DNA of 64,000 nucleotides, taken from contig CAYHBD010000010.1 of the NCBI GenBank assembly GCA_964354805.1, positions 1-64,000 of the forward strand, in the 5' to 3' direction. Source of the stretch: an uncultured archaeon. Lineage in GTDB: Archaea; Iainarchaeota; Iainarchaeia; Iainarchaeales; GCA-2688035. The notes beneath the pieces were generated by a model. That model ran no database searches and was not told the DNA's origin. It was given only the letters and a program-made list of their open reading frames with translations. Made by a program: the position numbers and the translations under genes. Shown here piece after piece: positions 18,624 through 33,448 of this stretch (position 1 is its first letter; each line of letters begins with the position of its first letter).

Positions 18624-18690
18624 TTTCAACACGCCACTACGTAGGCGTGGTTGTGCCCGTTCGACCCAACAGGGCTTCTTCGAAGCCCTA

Positions 18691-18871
18691 TGCACGGGGG
18701 CGGGTTCGAACCGCCGAACGCACTAAGCGACAGGATTTCGCAAGCCCTCTCTTTGTTTTCTTTTTCCCAGGGCTTTTCTTGGCGAAGCCCTTTTTCTTTC
18801 CCAAGGCTTTCTTTTTTCAAAAAAGAAAGGCTTCTTGAGTCCTGCGGGTTTGACCGCTTCCCTACCCGTGC
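18691..18871 (-). tRNA. tRNA-Leu(CAA) with ~97-nt intron at 37/38 (18737-18833)
   Basis: Acceptor GCACGGG/CCCGTGC-A; anticodon stem CAGGA/TCCTG with CT-CAA-G; long variable arm; GGTTCGAACC T-loop; BHB-like junction with one mismatch. Confidence 0.9.
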
Positions 18872-18919
18872 ATTAAGATAATTTTAATAAGAAAAAGGAA
18901 TATTAAAAGCTTGCCCTTC

Positions 18920-20168: not shown

Positions 20169-20615
20169 ATGAAAAAGGAAATTTTCTTAATTGTTTTTCT
20201 TTTTGGTGCTGTTGCTTTAAGCGGCTGCACTCAACCAGGGTCTGTTACTGTTTTCAAATACGTTTGCTTTGATGGCACGGTTGTGGAAAATCAATCTGAT
20301 TGCCCTGCATTGCCTGATGTGAATTGCGAGCTAAGCTGCCCTTGCTCATGCCCCACGCCTGTTTTGCCTGAGACAAGCCAGGAGGAATTCATTCAGGGCC
20401 AGATAGATAAAGCAAACTACTGCTCTGTAAAAGAGGACTGTGTTCTGGCTGAAAGCAAGTGCCCCTTCGGCTGCACTATTTTCGTCAACAAGAGCGAACT
20501 TGCCAGAATAAACAAAATAATCAGCGAATACAGGCAAGTATGCAATCTTTCCTGCACGCCCCTGAAATACTATAACTGCGATGAAAACAAGTGCGTTGAA
20601 ACAGACTGGGGTTAA
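20169..20615 (+). CDS. Cys-rich lipoprotein
   Basis: Lipobox ALSGC; many Cys (CFDG, CPFGC). Confidence 0.75.
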   Translation: MKKEIFLIVFLFGAVALSGCTQPGSVTVFKYVCFDGTVVENQSDCPALPDVNCELSCPCSCPTPVLPETSQEEFIQGQIDKANYCSVKEDCVLAESKCPFGCTIFVNKSELARINKIISEYRQVCNLSCTPLKYYNCDENKCVETDWG

Positions 20616-20671
20616 AGGGCTGGCAACTCGGGCGAAAGAATAAAATAGGGGTTTGGCGTATAATTAATTAG

Positions 20672-20860
20672 GTGAATGCTTTGTTTAGATTTTTCAGGAG
20701 AAGAAAACTAATTCCTGTCCCTGCTTCCGGCAACACTCCGGGTGACAGAAGAGTTAGACCACCGATAATGACCGGCGTTCATCCATCTGTGGGAAGGGTT
20801 TACTTTGACCGATTTCTTGAGTTGTGGAAGCCAAACAAAAGAAAATCAAAAGAGCAATAG
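20672..20860 (+). CDS. Small basic orphan protein
   Basis: 62 aa; FFRRRK at N-terminus; own promoter-like motif upstream. Confidence 0.4.
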   Translation: MNALFRFFRRRKLIPVPASGNTPGDRRVRPPIMTGVHPSVGRVYFDRFLELWKPNKRKSKEQ

Positions 20861-20898
20861 CTGGAATTTTGCCCGAATTATTCTTCCCCTTAATTTTT

Positions 20899-20909
20899 CG
20901 CAGGGGCTG
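20899..20909. repeat. att site (distal copy of tRNA-Ser 3' end)
   Basis: CGCAGGGGCTG equals 31781-31791. Confidence 0.85.
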
Positions 20910-21014
20910 TAAGGAAATGCTTACAGTTTAGTGCAGTTACCTTAGTGTAATATAATAACCATTCTTATTTAAATATATTCGCTTATTACCTTAATGTAAC
21001 ATTGAGGTGTTTTT

Positions 21015-21170
21015 GTGCCAAATCTACAGTTTTCAAAGGGCAGATGGAGCTTAACCATTCCTTTTGAAATGGTTGAATCAAAAGGCTGGCAGAAAGGCCA
21101 GCGCCTGCTATGCAATTTCAACGCCCAGGGCAACATTGAATTAAGCGAATTAAAGCCAAAAACAAAATAG
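21015..21170 (+). CDS. AbrB/MazE/SpoVT-like DNA-binding protein (51 aa)
   Basis: Manual translation MPNLQFSKGRWSLTIPFEMVESKGWQKGQRLLCNFNAQGNIEL...; GAGGTG RBS; not in the ORF track. Confidence 0.7.
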   Translation: MPNLQFSKGRWSLTIPFEMVESKGWQKGQRLLCNFNAQGNIELSELKPKTK

Positions 21171-21286
21171 GCCTGCTGCTCGTTTTCTGCCGTTGTAAAG
21201 CGCAGGTTTTTAAAGCTTTTTTTGAGGAAAAAGGTTTTTATAGTAGAAAAGCCTTTTTGTTACAAAACAAAGAAGGGAAAAAAAAG

Positions 21287-21733
21287 ATGCCTAAAGCACT
21301 GTTTTATATTGAGGGCAAAAACGTGCAGCATATTGGTTGCAGGCTAATTGTTACAAAACAATTAATCCACACTGGGCTCACTAAAGGCGGGGCATTCAAT
21401 TTGCCTGACGGCAGGGTTGAAATTGTTTTGGAAGGGAGCGAAGACCAATTAAAAAACGCCCACAACTATATTAAAGACAATTTGATTGAATGGATAAAGC
21501 AATCAGCAAACGAAAGGGAAGAACTAAAGCGATTGATTGGAAACCCAAAGCCTGATGTCAAAATCAGTGAATTAGAGTTTAACGATTCACTGCTTGTGCT
21601 TGACATTGGGTTATTCAGCCATTCATTAACCTTTGACCAAATATACAAGGGAATAGACGTTTACAAAGATTTAACAAAATCAATCCTGCTTCTTAATCAA
21701 ACACTAAAAAACAAAAACTCAGCCGGGAACTAA
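21287..21733 (+). CDS. Acylphosphatase-like protein with C-terminal extension
   Basis: GKNVQHIGCR (cf. GxVQGVGFR) and NLPDGRVEIVLEG. Confidence 0.75.
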   Translation: MPKALFYIEGKNVQHIGCRLIVTKQLIHTGLTKGGAFNLPDGRVEIVLEGSEDQLKNAHNYIKDNLIEWIKQSANEREELKRLIGNPKPDVKISELEFNDSLLVLDIGLFSHSLTFDQIYKGIDVYKDLTKSILLLNQTLKNKNSAGN

Positions 21734-22064
21734 AAGAAGGCACTATTATAGTGAAAAAAGAAAGAGTAGCCTTCCGCTGCTGGCACTGCTTTGAATAGCT
21801 GATTGTTTTTCCTTGCTTTGAAAGGAACTTGGCAATATCCCGAACAGAACCATTTTGGGGAGCAGAACCTTCTTTGCCCTTAACATGTTTGCCTGATTTA
21901 TAAGCACTGTAAAACTGTTTTACAGTGCCTGCTTTTGATTGCAGCCATGCTCTCGCTAAAACAATCGAGCCCTCTACATCGTGAAAGTCTGTGTCCCGCT
22001 GCTCCGGCAACAAATGCCTGCTGCTTGAATTTTATATAAAACTCTAAAAAAAGCAAAAGGAGGC

Positions 22065-22140
22065 GGGGCGGGAAAAAAAGAGAAAAAAACCCGCCCTGTT
22101 TTTTTTTCAAATAGCAGGCGTTGAAACGCCTGCTGCTTTT
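22065..22140. terminator. Paired GC-rich hairpins with T-tracts at the end of the element's minus-strand operon
   Basis: GGGCGGG...CCCGCCC followed by T-run; AGCAGGCGTT-GA-AACGCCTGCT (22113-22134). Confidence 0.45.
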
Positions 22141-22250
22141 TCTTTTTTTTCAAGCAATTGCTTTGTCTTTTCTATTTCTTCCATTTAAATGCACTGCTTG
22201 AAATAAGCCGGGAAAAAATTGAAACCCGTGTGGCGCATAACAAAACCCTT

Positions 22251-22616
22251 TCAGGCAATTTGTGTTTCAACCAGCTGCCTTGACCACATGAACAAAACCA
22301 AGACAACAACAAGGATTAAAATAATCCAGCCGAAAGAAAAAAAGAAGCCTACAACATCAAAGCTGGTGGCGAAGCTTTCCTGACTGGCTTGAACAACATC
22401 CTGCAGCTGTGCCTTTATGCCCGCATCCTCAATTGTTGAAAAGCTTTGCTCTGCATCAGCAATCAGCGACTGCCCTTGTGCCATGAATGAAATATTTATC
22501 AATTGGGTGAATGGCAAAAGCAGGGCAAACAAAAACAGCAGGAAAATGGAGAGCGAAACGAAAGCCATGAACAAGGAAACACTGCCCCTGCCGCCTAATT
22601 TTTTTATCTCAAACAT
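22251..22616 (-). CDS. Two-TM helical hairpin protein with prepilin-like N-terminus (candidate virion/pilin protein)
   Basis: KKLGGRG|SVSLF followed by a hydrophobic helix, amphipathic linker and second hydrophobic helix. Confidence 0.55.
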   Translation of the reverse strand: MFEIKKLGGRGSVSLFMAFVSLSIFLLFLFALLLPFTQLINISFMAQGQSLIADAEQSFSTIEDAGIKAQLQDVVQASQESFATSFDVVGFFFSFGWIILILVVVLVLFMWSRQLVETQIA

Positions 22617-22664
22617 TTGCCATCACACCAACACACATATTATGTGCCTTCCAATTAAAATTTT

Positions 22665-22892
22665 TTACGCTCCGATTTTTTTTTCAATTGCCACAATTTT
22701 TTCCAATGTAGTTTTTTTCATTTCACTCTCTGGCCATCGCTCAACTTGCGCTTTCAGCAAGCCCACTTCAATTTTCTGAAAGCCTGATATTGTTTTGCGC
22801 TCCTCGCTGCCCAGGTTCTTCTTCGCAGCTCGCTTTTGCAAGCGAACAAACTGATTAAGACAACTAAAAACGCTTTCAAAGTCCAAATACAT
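22665..22892 (-). CDS. Hypothetical protein (element)
   Basis: GGAGGTGG RBS before ATG at 22892. Confidence 0.55.
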   Translation of the reverse strand: MYLDFESVFSCLNQFVRLQKRAAKKNLGSEERKTISGFQKIEVGLLKAQVERWPESEMKKTTLEKIVAIEKKIGA

Positions 22893-22962
22893 CAAACCAC
22901 CTCCTTTTTCGTTCACTTTCCCGAGATAAACAATCTAAATTAAACACAACCCAACATATTCA

Positions 22963-23874
22963 TTACACTTTTAGCCGCCCTGTTGAAATCAGGGCATTTA
23001 ATGCTCGCTGCAAGTTCCTTGAAACAACTTCACCACAGGAGAAATGCGCTCTAATCAAACCCACGTCAGCATAAGGCTTTCCCCTTTTATCAATGCCCGT
23101 TAAGTCTTTAATCTGCCGAACGGCTTCCTCAAGCAATGGCTTGAAATCAATCTTTTCAATCGCCTTACCTTTCTCCCGCAGCAACTGCTCGTGCCACCTG
23201 GCAAGATTAACATCAATGTAATCAGCTTTCTTTTTCTCATAAGCGTCAACCAGCTCTTTTCTCGGCAGCGGAATAGATATTTTATCAATCCTTGAAACCT
23301 CGCCTTTCACATCCCTAACCCTGGGCTTTGGCATATACTGTTTCCCGCTCATAGCCGAAACAGTGCTCCAGTAAAACTGTGCAAAACTGCGCTTGCTGCG
23401 AAAATCAATGCTCTCAAACTTTGCAATGCCCGTTATGCCAACCTTGCGCACAACACTGTCAATTTGTGAAATCATGGGTGCACACATGAAAACAATAAAC
23501 CCTTTTGCCCTGTAGGTTGTAACTGTGAAATTCATCCGCTTGTTTTCCTTTGTCATCGCATTCCGGGCGCTCGCTGCCTTTTCGCTGCCAGCAATTTCAT
23601 CAAAAAGAATAACGCTGCCCCGCTTTAATTTTCCCTTTGAATCCCCGTTTCGCATAAGCCCAATAAAGTCTTCAACACTGAAAACAATGCGGTCGCTATT
23701 AAAGCCCGAATCCAAGTCTTGCCCAAAACGAATAGCTGCCGTGCTTTTGCCCGTGCCAGGCTTCCCAATAAACAAGAACGTGCAGTTTTGTTTTTGGCGA
23801 TAAATATCCCGCCAGACCTGGCGATAAATGAAATTTCTTTTGATTTTCAACGGCATTACCTGCGTCATACTCAT
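22963..23874 (-). CDS. P-loop ATPase (viral Zot/B251-like; candidate packaging or assembly ATPase)
   Basis: Walker A GKPGTGKS; Walker B VILFDE; YRAKG and IDSVVR segments; no TM helix. Confidence 0.75.
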   Translation of the reverse strand: MSMTQVMPLKIKRNFIYRQVWRDIYRQKQNCTFLFIGKPGTGKSTAAIRFGQDLDSGFNSDRIVFSVEDFIGLMRNGDSKGKLKRGSVILFDEIAGSEKAASARNAMTKENKRMNFTVTTYRAKGFIVFMCAPMISQIDSVVRKVGITGIAKFESIDFRSKRSFAQFYWSTVSAMSGKQYMPKPRVRDVKGEVSRIDKISIPLPRKELVDAYEKKKADYIDVNLARWHEQLLREKGKAIEKIDFKPLLEEAVRQIKDLTGIDKRGKPYADVGLIRAHFSCGEVVSRNLQRALNALISTGRLKV

Positions 23875-24344
23875 TCCTCAAAATCAAAGTTTTTGCTTTT
23901 CACCGGCATCAAATTTGCTGCTCCAAACTGGGAAATGAGCAAGTCTTGAAGCTCACTCAACAAATCAAGGTATTGGTCAACCCCGTCATTAAAAAAAAAC
24001 GTTTGCCCGTTTACCTGAACCTGTTCAAGCAGCCGCAGCCGTATTTTTGCCCCGTTTATTTCCAATACATATTTTTGGTGCATTTTTGTTTTCAGTTTTG
24101 CGGACTTTGTTTTGTAGTCTTCCGTTAAAAAAGAGTTCAGCATGCTCTCAATCGTTCTGATTGCAGAATAAGCTCCTCTTGCAACCGCAACCCGCCCGTC
24201 AAACGTTTTGCGCCTCGCTTGCGAAACAGAAACCAAAAAATTATAACGGTCAAGTTCCTGCAAAACCAAGTATTGCAGGTTTGTTCGTTCATTGCGAATG
24301 TCCTCCACATTCATGCTCGCCAGAAAGCCCGTTTCCTCACTCAT
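23871..24344 (-). CDS. Hypothetical protein (element)
   Basis: Start/stop overlaps with both neighbours. Confidence 0.65.
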   Translation of the reverse strand: MSEETGFLASMNVEDIRNERTNLQYLVLQELDRYNFLVSVSQARRKTFDGRVAVARGAYSAIRTIESMLNSFLTEDYKTKSAKLKTKMHQKYVLEINGAKIRLRLLEQVQVNGQTFFFNDGVDQYLDLLSELQDLLISQFGAANLMPVKSKNFDFEE

Positions 24345-24727
24345 TTAGTTTTCGCCTCCGCTTTTTCAATCAAGTCCGAAAAATCGCAGCCTTTTGGCTC
24401 GGACTTAAAAACCACTGCAAGCAACAGTTTGAGTTTAAAGTTTGCTGCCCGAACATTCCTAAATTTTTCCTCGCAATCTTGGTTTTGGCGAAAATCCAAA
24501 ACGGCCTGCTCAAAACCTTTTTCGTCAGGAATCAGGCCTCGGGCGAAAACAATAGCTTCAAGGTTGTCCACTGCTACGCTAAAATAAATCATGCCATCCT
24601 CAAACTTTCCGAGTTCTGCGCTTTTTGGCAAAATGTTCAACGCAGCCCACAAAGCCGCATCGGTGCATCGTTCCGCCAAATTCTTCCTGCTAAAACCTGA
24701 CCATTCGTTATCTTCCTGTTTTTTCAC
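24341..24727 (-). CDS. Hypothetical protein (element)
   Basis: GAGGTGA RBS; coupled to the downstream ORF. Confidence 0.65.
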   Translation of the reverse strand: MKKQEDNEWSGFSRKNLAERCTDAALWAALNILPKSAELGKFEDGMIYFSVAVDNLEAIVFARGLIPDEKGFEQAVLDFRQNQDCEEKFRNVRAANFKLKLLLAVVFKSEPKGCDFSDLIEKAEAKTK

Positions 24728-24732
24728 CTAAA

Positions 24733-24993
24733 TCACCTCATTGATTTTTTTTTATAAAAAAAAATTGGGCGCTTCATTACAACTCTCTGGCTTTCAAAAA
24801 AGTCACTACGCCAGCATTCAATCTTTGAAACAAAAAAACCCTGCGCCTGCAATTCCCGCAGCTCACTCTCGGTTTTAGGCACGGCCATCTCAAAGGCTGA
24901 CGGGTAAACCATCTGCGGCAGGCGGCGGGATGGAGTGAGCCGCCTGCCTTTTAACTTGGAGGTTTTTTTTCCACGAATTAAAATATGTTTCAT
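24733..24993 (-). CDS. Basic hypothetical protein (element)
   Basis: Start MKHILIRG at 24993 overlaps the upstream stop (ATGA); the longer ORF-track version is unlikely. Confidence 0.55.
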   Translation of the reverse strand: MKHILIRGKKTSKLKGRRLTPSRRLPQMVYPSAFEMAVPKTESELRELQAQGFFVSKIECWRSDFFESQRVVMKRPIFFYKKKSMR

Positions 24994-25169
24994 TTTGCAA
25001 CCCGCCCAGCAAATTTTCCATGTAAATAAAAAACATAAACCCCAAAAAGGAAAACAATTGCAAGCACAGCGAAAGCCAGCAGAATATTCAAAATGGAAAA
25101 AAGCAGGCCAATGCCACAGGCCGCAACAGCAAGCAGCAAGCAGGCAACAGCGAGCAAAAGTTTTTTCAT
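24990..25169 (-). CDS. Small hydrophobic protein (59 aa, two TM)
   Basis: Manual translation MKKLLLAVACLLLAVAACGIGLLFSILNILLAFAVLAIVFLFGVYVFYLHGKFAGRVAK; ATGA overlaps at both ends. Confidence 0.7.
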   Translation of the reverse strand: MKKLLLAVACLLLAVAACGIGLLFSILNILLAFAVLAIVFLFGVYVFYLHGKFAGRVAK

Positions 25170-25426
25170 TCAACCATCACCCACCACACGGTTGTAGAAT
25201 TTGAAACTTCAATTTTAACAAGTCCAGCGATACGCAATTCTTGCAAAGCAATTATTGTTTCGGTTTCCGAAAAACCGTTGTTTGGATTTCCATAAATCTC
25301 CCAAGCCAAAAAATGCTTATCGCTTGGTCGCGTTTCCGCTCTATTCCAATTCGGCATTTTCACGTTTTTGGCTTTTGGCAATTCAAGAATCTTTTTCAAC
25401 AAGAGTTGCTGTTGCATAGTGTTCAC
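25166..25426 (-). CDS. Small protein, possibly winged-helix
   Basis: C-terminal ALQELRIAGLVKIEV...VWWV resembles a wHTH recognition helix plus wing. Confidence 0.5.
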   Translation of the reverse strand: MNTMQQQLLLKKILELPKAKNVKMPNWNRAETRPSDKHFLAWEIYGNPNNGFSETETIIALQELRIAGLVKIEVSNSTTVWWVMVE

Positions 25427-25736
25427 CTTCCAAAAAACTTTGTTTTGACTCTAATTTTTGGCGTTTGGCTTCAAGCCAATTTTTTAGCTCGCTTTCCAAA
25501 CCCTGTAAGTATTCAGGGACTGCGGTCATGCGCCAAATTTCTTTTGCTGCCTCAAGGTCTTGTTCAAAAATTGTTTGGCGTTTTTGTTGCCTGGTGAGAA
25601 AAGCCGCGCACTTCAAAAACTGTTTCGTTTCCTTTTGCATTGCGCGGTCTAAAGCCAAGCGGGATTTGCCTGATATCCGAATGCCTAACTCTTTTATTAA
25701 CTCACTAACCGCTGCGCTTCGCAATAACTTGCTCAT
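25383..25736 (-). CDS. Histone-fold protein with C-terminal helical extension
   Basis: AAVSELIKELGIRISGKSRLAL...AAFLTRQQKRQTIFEQDLEAA aligns by eye with HMf-type RVS..A..AL...A..AGRKTIKAEDIELA. Confidence 0.8.
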   Translation of the reverse strand: MSKLLRSAAVSELIKELGIRISGKSRLALDRAMQKETKQFLKCAAFLTRQQKRQTIFEQDLEAAKEIWRMTAVPEYLQGLESELKNWLEAKRQKLESKQSFLEGEHYATATLVEKDS

Positions 25737-25942
25737 AAAAAAACCTCCTGAGATTCTATTACAATAGGCGCAATATCAGCCCTTTTTTTAAGCAAACCAA
25801 TGGATTGGAGCGCAAAATCAGCGCGCAATGTTGAAAAGAGGCAAAACCAAGCGCGCTGCCCTATAGCAAATGGCTTTTGAACACGTTCGAAAATGCGAAC
25901 CGGTTTTTTCTCATTGATTTTTGACTGCAAATCACTTTCCAT
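25733..25942 (-). CDS. Hypothetical protein (element)
   Basis: Overlaps neighbours; contains the GGAGGT RBS for the histone-fold gene. Confidence 0.5.
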   Translation of the reverse strand: MESDLQSKINEKKPVRIFERVQKPFAIGQRAWFCLFSTLRADFALQSIGLLKKRADIAPIVIESQEVFL

Positions 25943-26171
25943 TCAAAACACCAACCTGCTGCGTTTTTTTCAAAATATATCCTGTCGCATCAAAAGGGCT
26001 ATTTGGAATAAAGCAATGAGCGCACCGGTGCCCAAGCCCCCGGCCATGTTTGTGCAAACAATGGCAGAAATCGCACCAAAACTGCCAGCCGCCCAAAAAA
26101 TCCTGCCTGGGTTCAACCAAAACGATTGGAATGCCGTCTTTGTGGCCTAAAATAACAGTTTTTTCAGGCAT
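25932..26171 (-). CDS. Small Cys/His zinc-binding protein (phage-type)
   Basis: WCDFCHCLHKHG...GHRCAHC...SPF..TGYIL; start uncertain (26171 or 26237). Confidence 0.6.
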   Translation of the reverse strand: MPEKTVILGHKDGIPIVLVEPRQDFLGGWQFWCDFCHCLHKHGRGLGHRCAHCFIPNSPFDATGYILKKTQQVGVLNGK

Positions 26172-27756
26172 TTGCAACCACTCCCTCTCCGTTTTGTGTG
26201 GGCGGTCTGCCACTCTGGGCATTCTTACCCACGACATATTGCTCTGCCCTCTTTTTCTTCCGTTTTTTAGCCAAAACAGCCTGTTTTTCGATTGTTCCAA
26301 AATTTGTTACTCCCGATATGCGGTGCAATTCATGCAATTCATTTTCATTTGCATGATTTGCATTAATTGCATTATTTGTATCAACTGCATGAATTGCATT
26401 AATTTCTATTTCTTCCCATTTTGGTATTGAAAAAGTAAGAACATCTGGAAGGGGTATATAAATTGCGACATCTTTTTTGGATTCCTCAACATGGGTTTTG
26501 GTTTTTTCCAAAAAGCCAAGCTGAACCAATCGGTCAAGTGTATTTCGTAACCAGCGTTCTTCCCATCGAGAAAATCGTATATTTATGTTTTGTAGGGTTC
26601 CCCCATCTGGGAAGTATTTTATCAAAATTTCAATCAGTTCCTTTTCTTCTCTCGCAAGTGGAATCATCAAAGAATTGCTTGTTGTTTGCAATAAAGCAAT
26701 TCTTGCATTTCCATAATCTTCCGGAGTAGCAAGTATTTTTCCCTGCAAATCTTTTTGTCTTTGGTGTTGGTGCAAACAGGCGCTTCCTTTAATATAATCA
26801 AGGAAGCGGGAGAAAATTGTTCGTTGAATAACCTGGCAATTCCTTGATTTTTTTATCCAGTATTCAGCTAATGCGTGGGTTATTTTTTCTGCATATGGAA
26901 TAATCACTTCAATGAAATCAAGGCCGTAATAAAATCTTTTTGCCAATTCATTTTTTTCTTCTTGTTCTTGTCCTGCATCCTCACTCGCCTGTTTTAAATT
27001 TATTTGTAATGTTTGTTGTGAACTTTCATCCATGTACAAGAAAGGCAATCGCCTCAGTGCTTCATCTCCAGCTTTTACCTTTGCTGCGGTTGTGAGAAAT
27101 GTTGGTTTGCCTTTAATACTCAAATCTTTTGCTGCTCCCTCATGCACGATTGTAACTGTATTTATTTTGTTTGGGTTTGCGCTCATCAGAGTTTTGACTG
27201 ATTCGGAATTTAAAATTTTGCTGTTCACATCTTCGAGATAAACAAAATAGTTATTCCAATCTCGGTTCTGATGGCGAGCCAACGCATAATCCAACGCTTT
27301 TTCGCTTACTCTTCGCCTTGCAAAAATGTTTTCCTCAGGAAAAATATTAAGCGTTTCACTTACTACAAAATCTTTTCCTGTTCCTGGGGCAGCATTAGCA
27401 CAGAGGTTGCTACTTGTGCTTCTTTTATTTTTTACTTTTGCAAGACAACAAATAAGAATAATTGTTTTAATGGAATTTGTTTCGCCGACAACACTTTTTT
27501 GCACTTCGATTGTGAGGTTATTTAAAAGTTGTGGCTGGGATAAATATGCTATTAGTTCTGGGTTGGAGTCAATTTGTATTGCCTCTTCTTTTTTTCCTTG
27601 CATTTCACGTTCCAACTCAGCGAGTTCAACAACCTCTTTTTTTACTAAAACCATTGCAATTTTGTAATCAAGCTTTACAATACTACCTTTCGGTTGTTCT
27701 CCAGTGAGTTTAGTGTAATCTTCAAATTTCAAAATTTTGCACAGCACTTTGCTCAT
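26164..27756 (-). CDS. Helicase-like AAA+ ATPase (SF3/MCM-related) with C-terminal wHTH
   Basis: VVGE, Walker A APGTGKD, Walker B VYLED, ALRR; directly downstream of the primase. Confidence 0.75.
   Translation of the reverse strand: MSKVLCKILKFEDYTKLTGEQPKGSIVKLDYKIAMVLVKKEVVELAELEREMQGKKEEAIQIDSNPELIAYLSQPQLLNNLTIEVQKSVVGETNSIKTIILICCLAKVKNKRSTSSNLCANAAPGTGKDFVVSETLNIFPEENIFARRRVSEKALDYALARHQNRDWNNYFVYLEDVNSKILNSESVKTLMSANPNKINTVTIVHEGAAKDLSIKGKPTFLTTAAKVKAGDEALRRLPFLYMDESSQQTLQINLKQASEDAGQEQEEKNELAKRFYYGLDFIEVIIPYAEKITHALAEYWIKKSRNCQVIQRTIFSRFLDYIKGSACLHQHQRQKDLQGKILATPEDYGNARIALLQTTSNSLMIPLAREEKELIEILIKYFPDGGTLQNINIRFSRWEERWLRNTLDRLVQLGFLEKTKTHVEESKKDVAIYIPLPDVLTFSIPKWEEIEINAIHAVDTNNAINANHANENELHELHRISGVTNFGTIEKQAVLAKKRKKKRAEQYVVGKNAQSGRPPTQNGEGVVANA
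26324..26403. repeat. Degenerate 9-bp tandem repeat (TGCAT-T/G-AAT-like), about 9 units
   Basis: TGCAATTCA TGCAATTCA ... TGCATGATT TGCATTAAT TGCATTATT TGTATCAAC TGCATGAAT TGCATTAAT. Confidence 0.7.
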
Positions 27757-28604
27757 TTTCTCGCCTCCAGCAAACACAAATCACAAATAGAGCGCTTTCC
27801 AATCGAGCCAGCAAATTTCTGAATCTGCTTGCAATTAAATTCCGGCTTATACTGGCCCCAACACTTCAACCGAGCAACTGTTAAGTTTTCTTGTTGCTGG
27901 GTTTCAACAAGCTTTTGCAGCAAAGTTTCATTGCCTCTAAAATATGCAAAGGCGTTGGGAGAAAAGCGGCTATTCTGTTGTTTGTTGTTTAAATCAATTT
28001 TGTTGTTTAAGCCGTATTCAAAAAAAGGGCAGTGTTTTTGATTATCTATTCTCCCTGAGGGAGTCTTATACATAAATTTTTTTTCGTTCTCTTTTTTTAC
28101 CGCTTCAACAATTTCCTGCGGCAAAACATTCGTTCCCTTTGCTTCTCGAATCAGTATTTTTAACCTGCCTGTTTTGCGATGTGGTGTTCCTGCAATATGC
28201 CACATCCGTTTGTTTCCAAAGTTTGCCTCATCGAAACTTTTGGAAAGTTCTTCATTCGTCAGCCATAGTGTCAGTGCTTTTTTTACCATTGGGCGAATCT
28301 CTGGCTCAATTAATTCAAGCCCCTGCCATTCCATTTCAAGATGGAAGCTTTTATTTCCGCCATCATAATATTGGTATGCAATACCTTTCATATCGAGCAG
28401 CGAGCAAACAAAATTCATGACCTGTTTGTTTGTTTCTTTTTGTTCAAAATCTGTTTCAAGGCAAAGTTGTTCTGGCCTGATTAATTCGTAATTTGGTTCA
28501 CTTTTCATTTCTTTTTTCCATTGTTCAGGCGTTCTCCACTTGCTCCACCCATCTTTGTATTTTTTTAGGTTGCCTTCAGCAACAAGGTAAAGAAATTCAC
28601 TCAT
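27753..28604 (-). CDS. Archaeo-eukaryotic primase (AEP) with C-terminal PriL-like Cys cluster
   Basis: Motif I LETD, motif II GGNKSFH, motif III D..RMWHIAGTPHRKTG; C-terminal HCPF...FNC...ICDLC. Confidence 0.75.
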   Translation of the reverse strand: MSEFLYLVAEGNLKKYKDGWSKWRTPEQWKKEMKSEPNYELIRPEQLCLETDFEQKETNKQVMNFVCSLLDMKGIAYQYYDGGNKSFHLEMEWQGLELIEPEIRPMVKKALTLWLTNEELSKSFDEANFGNKRMWHIAGTPHRKTGRLKILIREAKGTNVLPQEIVEAVKKENEKKFMYKTPSGRIDNQKHCPFFEYGLNNKIDLNNKQQNSRFSPNAFAYFRGNETLLQKLVETQQQENLTVARLKCWGQYKPEFNCKQIQKFAGSIGKRSICDLCLLEARK

Positions 28605-28701
28605 CAAAATTCCCCCGGCAAACTTCGCATTCCCCGCATAATTCGGGCATAAAAAGGCAAAAGCGAGGACACCAAATAGCACGAAAAATTTTAAGGCTCA
28701 T
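28597..28701 (-). CDS. Tiny Cys-rich ORF (34 aa)
   Basis: MSLKIFRAIWCPRFCLFMPELCGECEVCRGNFDE; GGAGG RBS; fills the operon gap. Confidence 0.4.
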   Translation of the reverse strand: MSLKIFRAIWCPRFCLFMPELCGECEVCRGNFDE

Positions 28702-28873
28702 GTCTGCTTCCTCCATTTTTGTTTTCAATCGCAGACAGCCTGCTGGCTACATCCATTAACCTTTCTTCAGCCTGTCGCAGCCTGGAGTTTAAGGCTTCAA
28801 TTTCTTCCTGCTGTCGTTCAAAAGAGCGGGCAGGGTGGCTGGTGCAAAAGCCTGTGTTGAGGCTGCTACGCAT
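28691..28873 (-). CDS. Small coiled-coil protein
   Basis: Heptad-like IEALNSRLRQAEERLMDVASRLSAIE. Confidence 0.5.
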   Translation of the reverse strand: MRSSLNTGFCTSHPARSFERQQEEIEALNSRLRQAEERLMDVASRLSAIENKNGGSRHEP

Positions 28874-29054
28874 GAGGCAACACCTCAACTTTTTGAATCA
28901 GGGAAAAAGCAAAAACTTGGGGCAATCCAAACTTATCAATCATGCCGAGCTTATCATCCGTAACAGAAATTATTTTGCCTGAATACACCCTCTGTTGTCC
29001 GCAATCAAAAACAACAACCTTGCAAAATTTTCCAAGAAAAAGTTTCCAATCCAT
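28866..29054 (-). CDS. Sm/LSm-like small beta-barrel protein
   Basis: FLGKFCKVVV...YSGKIISV...LGMID...FSLIQKVE; GGTGAGG RBS (alternative start 29120). Confidence 0.6.
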   Translation of the reverse strand: MDWKLFLGKFCKVVVFDCGQQRVYSGKIISVTDDKLGMIDKFGLPQVFAFSLIQKVEVLPHA

Positions 29055-29116
29055 TTCCTCACCTTTTTTATTTTTTTTCTCGCCTTCGCAGCTCGGCGCA
29101 AACCGCTTGAAAAAAT

Positions 29117-29254
29117 TCATTCGGCATTTTTTTCAGCCTCCAGCGCAGAATGGAGCAGATGCAGCAGCAAGGCCGTGCGTGTGTTGAATTGTTGTTTTTT
29201 TGCGTCAATGCGCCCAAGTAATTCAGCTGGGCAGTTGAATTGAACCAAAGGCAT
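29117..29254 (-). CDS. Ribbon-helix-helix (CopG-like) protein, 45 aa
   Basis: Manual translation MPLVQFNCPAELLGRIDAKKQQFNTRTALLLHLLHSALEAEKNAE; AGGTGA RBS; first gene of the operon. Confidence 0.65.
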   Translation of the reverse strand: MPLVQFNCPAELLGRIDAKKQQFNTRTALLLHLLHSALEAEKNAE

Positions 29255-29414
29255 TATTTTGTCACCTGAATGTAATGGTGCGGTTGGAATTTATAAATGT
29301 TTTTCTTTTTTTTACTACTTTTTTTTGTGGTAGGTATTGCTTTTTCTACTACTAAAATAAGGTTTTAATGGGAAAGCCATAGTTTTATAAAGAGAAACCC
29401 CTATTATTTGTAGT

Positions 29415-30401
29415 ATGCCTACTACTGAAAGAAAAGAGCTGGAAGACCTTGCAAATTGCTTGGGAACACCAAAAACAAGCAGGGTTTTGCAGTTAATTGA
29501 GCTTTCAAACAATGGGCTGCTGATGCAAGACCTCTTTTCCCTGCTTAACGCACCAAAAGACAAGGGCACCCAGGATGCTTTAAAATTGCTGCAAGAAAGT
29601 GGTCTTATTGAAAAGCGAAAAGGCACAAACGTAAAAACAATCAGGGCAACATGGCAGCAAGAGCGCAACAAACTGCCTGCGCTGATCGAAATAAATATTG
29701 ATGCAGGCCTGCGTTTTGGCTCGAGGTTTTTTTGCAAGCAAAACCCGGTTGCGCTTTTCTTTGAAAAAATAATAAACAAAAATGGGTTGAGCAAAGAACA
29801 GCAAGCGCTTTCTCCTTGCCTTGATGCAATTGGAAAAGAGATTGCGGCGAGATGGGAATGGCAAAAGCTGGCTGTTGATTTTAACACAGAACTACTGCCT
29901 GCTTTTGCTCAAAACTTTGAAAGCATTGGCAAAGAATTGGGAAATGCGTCTTTAAACAAAATATTAATAGCTAAAAAGGGCGCTGCAGAAGGTTTGGAAA
30001 TGCTTAATCAAAAAACGATTGAGGTAATGGAAGAAATGAAGAAGGAAAAAAAAGCAGGCCGTTTGGCTTTTGTTGCAAGCCTGAAAGAAGAAAAAACGCT
30101 TTCCACACATTTGGATTATGTTTCACATATGCTGCAGCGCTTGCTTGTTGAAGAATTTATTCAGCACTACACCCGCTTTTATGAGTATGTTGCAAAAGAG
30201 CAAGCGCCGGCAATTGATTTGGATAAAATAAATTTTATTGTTTCCCTGCTGCAAGAGGTTGAATCACGCCTTTCAAAAAACGCCCTTGTTTTTGAGATTG
30301 TTTCCCGCTTGCAAAACTTCAACAACCTTTTAAGCGTTGCAATGGAGCAAAGGAAAACAATGGTGCTTTTGGAAAATAAGAAAGTGGCAGAAGGCAATTA
30401 G
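29415..30401 (+). CDS. Winged-helix (ArsR-like N-terminus) regulator with helical C-terminal domain
   Basis: LGTPKTSRVLQLI...ALKLLQESGLIEKRK; divergent from the RHH gene. Confidence 0.6.
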   Translation: MPTTERKELEDLANCLGTPKTSRVLQLIELSNNGLLMQDLFSLLNAPKDKGTQDALKLLQESGLIEKRKGTNVKTIRATWQQERNKLPALIEINIDAGLRFGSRFFCKQNPVALFFEKIINKNGLSKEQQALSPCLDAIGKEIAARWEWQKLAVDFNTELLPAFAQNFESIGKELGNASLNKILIAKKGAAEGLEMLNQKTIEVMEEMKKEKKAGRLAFVASLKEEKTLSTHLDYVSHMLQRLLVEEFIQHYTRFYEYVAKEQAPAIDLDKINFIVSLLQEVESRLSKNALVFEIVSRLQNFNNLLSVAMEQRKTMVLLENKKVAEGN

Positions 30402-31699
30402 CCGTTTTCTGCCAGTATTTTTTTATTCATCCCCGTTTTCTGCGCCATTTTTACCATGAATCCCAAAACTTCTTTTTGCATTGCCGGGTTTTTGAATGCC
30501 AATTGCATTGTTTCAATCAGCAGGTTGTTTTCTTTGCTTTCTTTTGCCAGCACGTTGTCCAATCCGAGTGTTGCTCCGCATTGCTCGCAAAATCCATTGC
30601 TTTCTGTGCTGCTGCAAATCGGGCATTCTTTTGGCATCATGCAATTGCCTGCGTTCAGTTCAAAGTATGGCTTCTCAAAGTCCACCGGCTTTATATGCGT
30701 ATAATTCAGGCTAATCCTTTTGCTTTTGCTCCACCCAAACCAAGCATACTTTATATCCTCGCCCCAGCCGCTGCATCTGCTGGCCATCATGTGCCTGAAA
30801 ACGCTGGTTGCCTTTCTTTCAGGCAATTCAACGCCGCCTGCTGCAAAGGCTCGCAGAACCAGCTGTCGTGCAGCAACATAGCTTAGCCTGTTGCCAAAGC
30901 GGTCAGGGAACAATGGTGCTTCTTGGTTATCGTGTTGGTAATTCTGCAGCCATTTTGTAATGTATGGCTTGCAGAGATAGCCGATAACCGTTCTCGGTTT
31001 GGTTTTTGAAACAGGAAAGTGCAGCAGCAGATAGTTTTTTCCCTCTGCCTGCTTTATGTCGCTTACGTTCATGCCAACTGCTTCGGTTATTCGGCATCCA
31101 GCATCATTCATAATTGAAAGCAGTGCCTGGTTGCGGAAATAGAGCGGGCTGTTTGCCCTGACCAGCTTTGATGCCCTTATTGTTTGCCCTTCTCTTTGTG
31201 CCTTGCTTACCAATGCGTGTTTTTCTATTATGCCCTTAATCTGTTCCTGTGTGGGCAGTTCAATTAAATCTTCTACATCAGGCCGCTTGGGCATCTCAAT
31301 GTTGTCAATTGCCTCAGGGTATTTGCCCTTTTTCATGTTGAAATGGTATCGCAAAAACTTTTTTGTCAGCCAAAAGTATTTCTCTACGCTGCCCCAGCTT
31401 AATGAACCTTTATCCATTCTGTCAAGCATGGAATTGAACCAAGCTTCGTTATCTGCTGCTGTTATGGCTTCAACGTTTTGCTTGTTGTGCCACAGCAGGT
31501 AATGATAGCTCACATCCAAGTCTTTGCATTGGGTGTTAATTCTTGCACCCTTGTCTTTTGCGTTGTATCTCACAAGAGCTTGCTTGCATTCTTCGCTCAA
31601 TTCGCTGTCCTGAATTTTTTGCAGCAGGCCTGCTGTTTCTTTTCGCCTATTATGAATATCAATCTCTTCTTTACCATTTGAATTAGGCTTCGCAGCCAT
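30398..31699 (-). CDS. int: Tyrosine recombinase/integrase with C-terminal zinc ribbon
   Basis: GCRITEA (R), SKTK (K), SVFRH (HxxR with S for H), FGWS, NYTH (Y); CPIC...FCEQCG; adjacent to tRNA-Ser att. Confidence 0.9.
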   Translation of the reverse strand: MAAKPNSNGKEEIDIHNRRKETAGLLQKIQDSELSEECKQALVRYNAKDKGARINTQCKDLDVSYHYLLWHNKQNVEAITAADNEAWFNSMLDRMDKGSLSWGSVEKYFWLTKKFLRYHFNMKKGKYPEAIDNIEMPKRPDVEDLIELPTQEQIKGIIEKHALVSKAQREGQTIRASKLVRANSPLYFRNQALLSIMNDAGCRITEAVGMNVSDIKQAEGKNYLLLHFPVSKTKPRTVIGYLCKPYITKWLQNYQHDNQEAPLFPDRFGNRLSYVAARQLVLRAFAAGGVELPERKATSVFRHMMASRCSGWGEDIKYAWFGWSKSKRISLNYTHIKPVDFEKPYFELNAGNCMMPKECPICSSTESNGFCEQCGATLGLDNVLAKESKENNLLIETMQLAFKNPAMQKEVLGFMVKMAQKTGMNKKILAENG

Positions 31700-31780
31700 T
31701 CGCAATCACCTCACTTTAGGGCTGCATTACTACACCGCAACCCTTAAAAAAGGCAACTGCGAATGAACTGCGAACACTGA

Positions 31781-31996
31781 CGCAGGGGCTGGGATTTGAA
31801 CCCAGGCTCCCTTTCGAGAACGAGCTCGCCGCAATTTTCGCTTGAAAAAGAAACCAATTTTCTTTTACTGAATCTTTTCTTTTTCAAAAAGAAAAGGCTT
31901 GTTTTGCAAAGCAAAACCCCTTTTCCCCAGGCTTTTTTGCGGAAGCAAAAAAGGCTGTTAGCAGGCTCGCGCGTTAAACCACTCCGCCACCCCTGC
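31781..31996 (-). tRNA. tRNA-Ser(GCT) with ~132-nt intron at 37/38 (31827-31958)
   Basis: Acceptor GCAGGGG/CCCCTGC-G; anticodon stem CGAGC/GCTCG with CT-GCT-A; long variable arm; GTTCAAAT T-loop; central helix CUGC/GCGG. Confidence 0.9.
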
Positions 31997-32053
31997 AGCT
32001 AGAAAATATTAACGGTGAAAACAATTAAAATTCATCGGTTGCAAAGTTTCTTT

Positions 32054-32806: not shown

Positions 32807-32965
32807 CGCCCGAGGAAGGACTTGAACCTTCGACCATCCGATTTCCGCATGGCCTTCCAAGGAAGGTATCCACCGTTAAAACACGATTTAACAGTCGGAT
32901 GCTCTACCTGTTGCCCCAGAAGAAACTGTTTTTTCACAGCTTGCTTCTGTCTGAGCTACTCGGGC
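32807..32965 (-). tRNA. tRNA-Asn(GTT) with two introns (15/16: 32911-32950; 37/38: 32843-32888)
   Basis: Acceptor GCCCGAG/CTCGGGC-G; D stem GCTC/GAGC; anticodon stem TCCGA/TCGGA with CT-GTT-A; both junctions fold as BHB-like motifs. Confidence 0.88.
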
Positions 32966-33448
32966 ATGGATTAATAATATGATAAAGAGAACTGGATTTA
33001 AATAAAAAGCTTGCTGAATTGGCGTTTTGCAAAAAAATTGGATTATTGCACACTGCTTTTGATTGCAGGCGATGCAATAAAAACAGCGAGAAAAAAAGCG
33101 CTTTAACCCGCTTATACGTGCAAAGAAGCGAAATTAACACTTTTTTCAGAAAATAGGGCTTTGTTAATTGCTTAATGCAATGCAGGCCCTGTTTTGTTAT
33201 GGCTGTTTTTAAATACCAATGCAAAATGCATTATACATAATTCGGGGGGCGTTATTCTTGCTTTGTTTCAGAAAAAGAAGAAAATCCTGCTTTTATACAT
33301 AAAAGGGAACCTATATTAAGCACTTTGGGTATAATATTAGCGCAGTTTTTCAAAGTGTTGCATTAGGGAATAAAAAAATTTCATTTGCAATATTTTGATC
33401 AAAGTGCTGCAGAGGGGTGTAATTTTATTATCTTTCGCAGCGCTTTGT

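Follow-up and report, generated by a model that had tools for sequence, protein, structure and literature searches.

A histone-fold protein with a predicted C-terminal helix, encoded in a putative integrated element of a DPANN archaeon

Does a small mobile element of an archaeon encode a histone of its own, and what would such a protein do there? The question is raised by the gene of P0001, a protein of 117 amino acids (aa), which lies in a putative integrated element of about 10.9 kb (Table 1). Both are found in the window, the stretch of 64,000 nucleotides (nt) analyzed here, which comes from contig C10 of a genome of 1.38 Mb (49 contigs, 88.5% complete). The host can be assigned to the Iainarchaeum/Diapherotrites group of DPANN archaea because its FtsZ is 80-89% identical to FtsZ of metagenome-assembled genomes (MAGs) named Candidatus Iainarchaeum or Diapherotrites. 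The best overall explanation of the locus is that P0001 is an element-borne, DNA-organizing histone, which as a dimer or tetramer would bind or bridge DNA. In our judgment, this explanation has an even chance of being correct.

P0001 seems to be a genuine gene product. The original prediction had placed its open reading frame (ORF) at 25383-25736, and the ORF list and the translation give a frame of 117 aa at exactly that location, on the minus strand. A Shine–Dalgarno-like GGAGG motif precedes the ATG by 7 nt, and the ATG itself (25734-25736) overlaps the TGA (25733-25735) of an upstream ORF of 69 aa in an ATGA arrangement, as read from the sequence and the ORF list. Because the motif and the overlap occur within an unbroken train of minus-strand genes, which runs from about 29254 down to 22251, P0001 is taken to be translated and coupled to its upstream neighbor. 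The ESM recognition value of P0001 (3274) was counted as support for a real gene as well.

The evidence that can be drawn from sequence comparison for a histone fold consists of several lines, each of them weak and all of them consistent. PF00125 (Histone) matches P0001 with an E-value of 2.2e-5 and 25.2 bits (curated cut-off 26.4), and a precomputed table assigns this family to the protein; the profile check with PF00808 (CBFD_NFYB_HMF) gave 13.2 bits (cut-off 21.4). The top matches among PDB sequences are HMfA (E 0.015) and HMfB, which align end to end over residues 8-68, and CHRAC-14 and H3 come next. Comparison of P0001 with 22 nucleosomal histones of Iainarchaeota by hhalign covers residues 5-65 (E 1.9e-5, probability 78%). 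A hidden Markov model (HMM) built from the same 22 histones matches the P0001 frame alone (E 7e-5) when run over all ORFs of at least 40 aa from the window and from seven loci of related elements. Four of the six matches returned by a six-frame search with P0001 in 100 related genomes are canonical histones, and the other two are unrelated frames; the canonical histones of related genomes are 25-34% identical to P0001 over residues 5-73. In the feature search of the ESM Atlas, which is alignment-free, all of the nearest clusters are histones (score 0.94, 198 of 256 features in common), and several of these clusters are 110-132 aa long. The segments originally read from the letters can be recognized at α1 (AAVSELIKE, 8-16), L1 (RIS, 20-22), L2 (KRQTI, 52-56), and α3 (EQDLEAA, 58-64), and the signature residues R53, T55, and D60 are present as claimed.

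Structure prediction points in the same direction. From the single sequence, AlphaFold2 (AF2) predicts helices at residues 3-17, 23-70, and 76-115, with α2 and α3 fused and without the L2 break. With P0001 aligned to the 22 histones, the model reaches a predicted local distance difference test (pLDDT) value of 81 and has helices at 2-17, 23-50, 58-72, and 75-116. When this alignment-guided model was searched against the PDB with Foldseek, the top 50 matches were exclusively histone-fold chains; HMfA and HMfB match it at a root-mean-square deviation of 1.4-1.6 Å over 60-63 columns, with E-values of only ~1e-2. The shape search of the ESM Atlas and a search of BFVD concur. The alignment-guided model and the alignment-free evidence together leave little doubt that residues 1-72 adopt a nucleosomal-type histone fold. 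The histone fold named in the original prediction is thus upheld by Pfam, PDB, hhalign, AF2, Foldseek, and ESM Atlas matches.

The structure neighbors of P0001 also include NF-YB/C, CHRAC-14, TAF9, and CENP-S, and they bring in a second explanation. P0001 could use its histone fold as a protein–protein or sequence-specific regulatory module, in the style of NF-Y, TAF, or CENP-S/X, instead of packing DNA. It might, for instance, be a transcription or replication factor of the element whose C-terminal helix binds another element protein. An operon shared with replication genes and the loss of the counterpart of R10 of HMfB would suit such a role. However, the top sequence matches are archaeal nucleosomal histones and not NF-Y or TAF proteins, and the RxTxxxxD motif, R20, and the strongly basic fold domain suit direct DNA binding. 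We consider a regulatory module quite improbable.

The residues of P0001 can be read against those of HMfB, whose roles are known (PMC6136690; for L1–L2 also PMC10516927); the correspondences are taken from the P0001 alignments. The intramolecular R52–D59 clamp, a salt bridge, is kept as R53–D60, R19 and T54 of the L1–L2 DNA site as R20 and T55, G16 of the stacking face as G18, and L46 of the dimer–dimer interface as L47. The minor-groove anchor R10 is lost, with E12 in its place, and the pair of minor-groove arginines (R10 and R19) is incomplete, only the counterpart of R19 being kept. Two further residues of the dimer–dimer interface are changed, H49 to Q50 and L62 to A63, and an extension follows α3; the dimer–dimer and stacking set is accordingly not intact. 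The fold domain (1-72) has a net charge of +7 and an isoelectric point of 10.2, and the nucleosomal histone of the host is less basic (+3).

A homodimer of P0001 is predicted with an interaction score (ipSAE) of 0.76, the best control reaching 0.00. At least 81% of the contacts are shared between runs, with a partner pLDDT of 71 or more. This mark is passed by 20 of 30 solved homodimers and by one of 23 single chains, counts that are rough here given that our own alignment was supplied. The predicted contacts are those of the classical handshake: L1 (20-22) of one chain meets L2 (55-56) of the other, and residue 33 of one chain meets residue 33 of the other, where the two α2 helices cross. The homodimer check proposed at the outset thus came out in favor of a handshake pair. 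Confident contacts are confined to residues 1-72, and the extension contributes none. The extension begins at a hinge (A72-V73-P74) and continues as a single predicted helix with a net charge of -3. It had been described as about 50 helical residues; its helical nature is supported by AF2, and its length was corrected to 45 residues. The helix is clearly amphipathic only at about 73-90, where the heptad analysis places the a/d-type hydrophobics L77, L80, L84, and W87.

Relatives of P0001 were sought widely. Searches of a word-indexed set of 5.8 billion proteins and, with phmmer, of 1.84 billion representatives each returned P0001 itself and nothing else, and tblastn of P0001 and of the 537-aa replication protein of the element against a phage collection gave no match. 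The ~60 positions that can be aligned with other histones, at 25-30% identity, are too few to resolve the histone donor. These results bear on the possibility that the island is defective and that P0001 comes from a captured histone gene which is decaying or without function, or resembles histones by chance: no other member was found among 1.8 or 5.8 billion proteins, its Pfam scores lie below the cut-offs, and the island comes from a MAG of 88.5% completeness. Conversely, the frame is intact, with a strong Shine–Dalgarno motif and translational coupling, several independent methods converge on the histone fold, and the adjacent element genes are intact. Decay or chance is therefore judged very improbable. 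If the best overall explanation holds as a whole, to which we give the same even chance as before, P0001 would be a real, fast-evolved histone and an accessory gene of one element.

The host has three histones of its own (Table 1): a canonical nucleosomal histone, a short α3-truncated histone that is face-to-face-like, and a coiled-coil (CC) histone. Comparison of P0001 with seven CC histones of the order by hhalign gave a probability of 0.1% and an E-value of 0.78. Since no relationship to CC histones can be detected, P0001 is viewed as a fourth, separate histone of nucleosomal descent with a C-terminal helix of its own. Two observations on the host histones stand apart from this question. 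Three types (nucleosomal, α3-truncated, and CC) make a rich set for a 1.4-Mb DPANN genome. In another genome of the same order, a 268-aa frame has the look of a CC-histone doublet, with two full CC units in tandem (L135:525-1328, minus strand; G032:C2:130200-132400).

P0001 and the host nucleosomal histone have the same fold, and P0001 keeps the invariant positions S22, A44, R53, and D60 as well as a glycine at the stacking position. The two differ in that they are only 25% identical, that L1 of P0001 is one residue shorter, and that R10, H49, and L62 are replaced by Glu, Gln, and Ala; canonical histones of Iainarchaeota are also shorter (66-69 aa). An element histone of this kind could act on host chromatin. 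P0001 might heterodimerize with the host nucleosomal histone or cap host hypernucleosomes, given that its dimer–dimer face is degenerate and blocked by the extension. It would then serve as a “capstone” by which chromatin of the host or of the element is opened or remodeled. The nucleosomal-type fold does align with the host histone over its whole length, and of the multimerization set, L47, D60, and G18 are kept and the counterparts of H49 and L62 differ. At such low identity, however, one would not expect promiscuous pairing, the highly divergent MJ1647 did not cross-oligomerize with canonical A3 (PMC10516927), and the homodimer prediction is confident. Interference in either form appears unlikely.

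Histones with C-terminal helices have been described before, and P0001 resembles several of them in part. MJ1647 bridges DNA, forms a homotetramer via its C-terminal extension, and stays separate from canonical histones (Ofer et al., 2023; PMC10516927); canonical dimer–dimer contacts of this protein would need a rearranged C-terminal module (PMC10516927). Like MJ1647 and the other Methanococcales (Mc) histones, P0001 combines a nucleosomal-like fold with a helical tail, and the confident contacts of its predicted homodimer all lie in the fold. Unlike P0001, with its single long predicted helix, MJ1647 has two short helices, α4 and α5, and a conserved K80–E95 salt bridge; R19 is substituted in MJ1647 and kept in P0001. 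The Mc family is restricted to chromosomes of Methanococcales, whereas P0001 is encoded on a mobile element of an Iainarchaeota-type DPANN archaeon. No MJ1647 chain is found among the PDB sequence matches of P0001 at E-values up to 10.

The CC histones are a family reported in Iainarchaeota, and one member, HMfC of M. fervidus, bridges DNA in vitro (Schwab et al., 2024; PMC11390915). They have a long C-terminal helix after the fold, as predicted for P0001, and one of them is encoded by the host. In the CC histones of the order, the N-terminal tails are acidic and the RxTxxxxD motif is missing, whereas P0001 has no N-terminal tail and keeps R53–T55–D60. The “phage histones” (A0A2E7QIQ9) have an α3 of 3-4 residues and a shorter α2 and lack RxTxxxD (PMC11390915), and the viral tail-to-tail histones (VTTH) of Caudoviricetes also have an α3-truncated fold (bioRxiv 10.1101/2024.12.06.627149); in both, the C-terminal helix has been proposed to tetramerize and bridge DNA. 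With these proteins, P0001 shares a virus- or element-encoded fold with a C-terminal helix. It differs from them by a full, even long, α3 (58-72), by the presence of R53-x-T55-x4-D60, and by its origin: they come from tailed viruses, and it comes from the 10.9-kb element, where no gene for a terminase, capsid, or tail was recognized.

Two further groups resemble P0001 by carrying a nucleosomal-type archaeal histone on extrachromosomal or viral DNA. MJECL25, a histone paralog on extrachromosomal elements of Methanocaldococcus jannaschii (cited in PMC10516927), is described as canonical, ~67 aa long, without an extension, and close to the host histones; P0001 differs from it in being 25-34% identical to any histone found and in having a 45-residue extension. 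MFVH are HMf-like viral histones, and the same work describes archaeal-like histones of Caudoviricetes (bioRxiv 10.1101/2024.12.06.627149). A review of viral histones contains no archaeal virus case (PMC9145170), and a survey of integrated elements of Thaumarchaeota does not mention histones (PMC6563490).

That the gene of P0001 belongs to a mobile element is suggested by the borders of the island. An 11-bp direct repeat, CGCAGGGGCTG, stands at both ends, and its copy at 31772-31782, read on the plus strand, equals the last 11 nt of a tRNA-Ser gene. Neither ARAGORN at default settings nor Rfam detected this gene, a tRNA-Ser(GCT). By our own estimate, a specific anchored 11-mer is expected by chance ~0.004 times in 15 kb. 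Integrative elements that target tRNA genes by means of a tyrosine recombinase are marked by an integrase beside an intact tRNA gene and by a second, directly repeated copy of the tRNA end at the opposite border, and this arrangement is found here. The genes between the repeats are absent from 80 FtsZ-anchored loci of related archaea, except for weak integrase matches in five of them; to the right of ftsZ, the gene content is conserved in these loci. Thus, the island is very probably an integrated mobile element, and the mobile-element context of the original prediction is borne out by the integrase, the attachment (att)-like repeat at the 3′ end of tRNA-Ser, and the absence of the genes from related loci. 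No capsid, portal, terminase, or tail gene was recognized in the element with Pfam or PHROGs.

The island also contains one copy of an exact 16-nt direct repeat, CTGCTTTTGATTGCAG (21929-21944 and 33053-33068, 11,124 bp apart), which is longer than the att-like repeat and has its other copy between tRNA-Asn and ftsZ. This repeat was rejected as the pair of element borders: its right copy lies beyond tRNA-Asn, which is conserved beside ftsZ in a relative. The 11-bp repeat was preferred because it is anchored in tRNA-Ser, adjoins the integrase, and fits the usual pattern. A duplicate of the 3′ end of tRNA-Asn that could serve as an att site was searched for, and none was found. The tRNA-Asn is a tRNA-like gene (32808-32966, minus strand) with more than one intron, whose 5′ and 3′ halves are recognizable by eye; it was missed by default ARAGORN, by ARAGORN with anticodon-loop introns, and by Rfam, and the nearest relative (L015) has kept it upstream of ftsZ. 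Long introns also occur in tRNA-Leu(CAA) (87 nt; 18690-18872, minus strand) and in the tRNA-Ser. The introns of these two genes consist of palindromic A/T-rich modules, such as AAGCC...GGCTT, and similar modules are found in intergenic DNA, for example, as repeats at 18801 and 20050.

How P0001 might act as a DNA-organizing histone can be outlined in steps. Residues 1-72 are predicted to pair as a handshake homodimer, and the conserved L1–L2 residues and the charge suggest that the dimer would bind ~30 bp of DNA as histones commonly do. P0001 would presumably form no hypernucleosome, since R10, H49, and L62 have given way to E12, Q50, and A63 and a 42-residue helix leaves α3 at the four-helix-bundle face. 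The extension helix may instead pair two dimers or recruit a partner. By analogy with MJ1647, HMfC, and the “phage” and VTTH histones, P0001 could then act like MJ1647 and HMfC and bridge DNA or bring it into loops, and in this way it may compact, silence, or organize the DNA of the element in the integrated state, during replication, or in packaging.

Several points weigh against this explanation or against parts of it. Both Pfam scores of P0001 are below the curated cut-offs. The fused α2–α3 helix of the single-sequence model neither confirms nor refutes the fold, and the AF2 fold model and the dimer prediction were both built on a hand-chosen histone alignment, which biases them toward the fold. 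The pass in the homodimer comparison may reflect likeness to solved histone dimers and is not proof of dimerization. One of the two minor-groove arginines aligns with a Glu in P0001, and the heptads read from the extension make up a short, imperfect pattern in which the a/d hydrophobics are clear at 77-88 only. Tetramerization, DNA binding, and bridging by P0001 are inferred, from its sequence and from analogy. P0001 is a singleton, and conservation consequently supports neither function nor selection. As for the element, the att repeat is just 11 bp long. A search for the empty site in 40 relatives with the left-flank DNA (20169-20898) gave only short repeat-like matches, and at the ftsZ locus of the nearest relative the alignment shows tRNA-Asn and no tRNA-Ser.

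The positions of the other genes of the element are given in Table 1. The gene of P0001 had been placed between replication genes and putative morphogenesis genes. It does lie downstream of the primase-like and helicase-like genes and of a Cys-rich small ORF; downstream of it stand a P-loop ATPase and small ORFs of membrane or unknown type, for which the morphogenesis label stays putative. The ESM Atlas clusters nearest to the 309-aa protein (0.95-0.97) are viral hypothetical proteins, some with primase domains in 10-69% of their members, and searches of Pfam and of PDB sequences gave no match. For the 537-aa protein, the PDB sequence search gave nothing useful and a scan of viral_contigs found no relative; homologues of 35-37% identity occur in two genomes of the same family; in one case, the contig also encodes an integrase and a terminase-like protein. 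Within the 3′ end of the 537-aa ORF, at least five tandem 9-nt units (ATTTGCATG and similar) stand at 26343-26409; they could be iterons, an origin embedded in coding sequence, or a plain peptide repeat. The small ORFs between the repeats include an AbrB-like one, named from its sequence without a Pfam match, an RHH (ribbon–helix–helix)-like one, an Sm-like one with a weak SH3-type match only, a Cys-rich one, and small unknown and membrane ORFs.

Homologues of the ATPase module were found on contigs of 11.8 and 14.1 kb. The longer of these (L143; ENA contig k141_1222002) carries the module with its 157-aa gene and encodes proteins of 1123 and 1061 aa, one of which has a Laminin_G_3 domain. The shorter (L146; JGI Ga0207997_1001539) has the module in common with the element and also carries a serine recombinase (resolvase). 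The two contigs may be members of a broader set of small elements in archaea. In a same-family genome, the contig region L014 (G015:C76:1-12816) has an Sm-like small ORF followed by a 433-aa helicase-like homologue and then by small Cys-rich ORFs and a terminase-like protein of 414 aa, and the contig carries a homologue of the integrase as well. This region is probably a related element, tailed-virus-like or satellite-like. No histone-like ORF was detected in the ATPase-module contigs or in the helicase-homologue contig with the histone HMM among ORFs of at least 40 aa.

Table 1. Positions of the P0001 gene, its parts, the surrounding element, and the histones of the host. Coordinates are those of the window unless a genome and contig are named.
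Feature	Position	Strand	Evidence or score
P0001 gene, 117-aa histone-fold protein	25383..25736, stop codon included	-	ORF list and translation; Pfam, PDB, and hhalign histone matches
GGAGG Shine–Dalgarno-like motif, 7 nt 5′ of the P0001 ATG	25744..25748	-	Direct sequence reading
Predicted histone fold, residues 1-72	25521..25736	-	AF2, Foldseek, homodimer contacts, charge
Fold parts: α1 2-17, L1 18-22, α2 23-50, L2 51-57, α3 58-72
C-terminal extension, residues 73-117	25386..25520	-	AF2, heptad and charge analysis
Putative integrated element, ~10.9 kb	20899..31782	.	11-bp direct repeat CGCAGGGGCTG at 20899-20909 and 31772-31782
tRNA-Ser(GCT) with 132-nt intron; putative integration target	31779..31997	-	ARAGORN with introns allowed
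Tyrosine integrase, 435 aa, adjoining the tRNA-Ser 3′ end	30398..31705	-	Pfam Phage_integrase, E 3.7e-9, 37 bits, above cut-off
309-aa primase-like protein (a lead only)	27753..28682	-	ESM Atlas neighbors
537-aa Walker-A (GTGKD) helicase-like replication protein	26164..27777	-	Weak MCM P-loop and ParB matches
P-loop ATPase (303 aa) and preceding 157-aa gene, two-gene module	22963..24344	-	Weak AAA, Zot, and nSTAND3 matches
Host canonical nucleosomal histone	G000:C29:37131-37322		67 bits
Host short α3-truncated, face-to-face-like histone	G000:C11:9280-9354
Host CC histone	G000:C42:38473-38874		189 bits, profile of seven CC histones of the order

The original prediction holds as an observation and is supported in part as an interpretation. 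Histones of small archaeal integrative elements had been called rarely described in it. As a general claim this needs to be narrowed: histones on archaeal extrachromosomal DNA and in Caudoviricetes are already published (PMC10516927; bioRxiv 10.1101/2024.12.06.627149), and PMC11390915 describes bridging histones of the “phage,” CC, and Methanococcales types. Our literature search turned up no report of a DPANN archaeon with a histone in a small non-tailed integrative element. What is new in P0001 is the combination of a nucleosomal-type fold with an independently acquired long helix, without sequence relatives, in a small non-tailed DPANN element. P0001 extends the histone types already described and is not a new kind of system. 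Its value is limited because it is a singleton, no family can be defined, and the functional steps are all deduced.

Bridging histones with C-terminal helices have so far comprised the chromosomal Mc and CC families, operon-linked RdgC histones, and the α3-truncated histones of tailed viruses. In P0001, the design of a histone fold with an oligomerization helix would have arisen again, from a nucleosomal-type histone. Because three different histones are already encoded by its host, the locus makes a compact natural test of whether archaeal mobile elements bring chromatin proteins to organize or silence themselves or to interfere with host chromatin, in parallel with the H-NS-like proteins of bacterial plasmids. 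A bolder version, which we hold to be rather improbable, is that the element uses its histone against host chromatin, as a capstone or bridging variant that intrudes into or caps hypernucleosomes of the host, or that protects the element against silencing by histones. If true, P0001 would play in archaea the part that mimics and antagonists of H-NS play for bacterial plasmids and phages, and it would have originated from a nucleosomal histone that was captured, diverged rapidly, and gained a C-terminal oligomerization helix independently.

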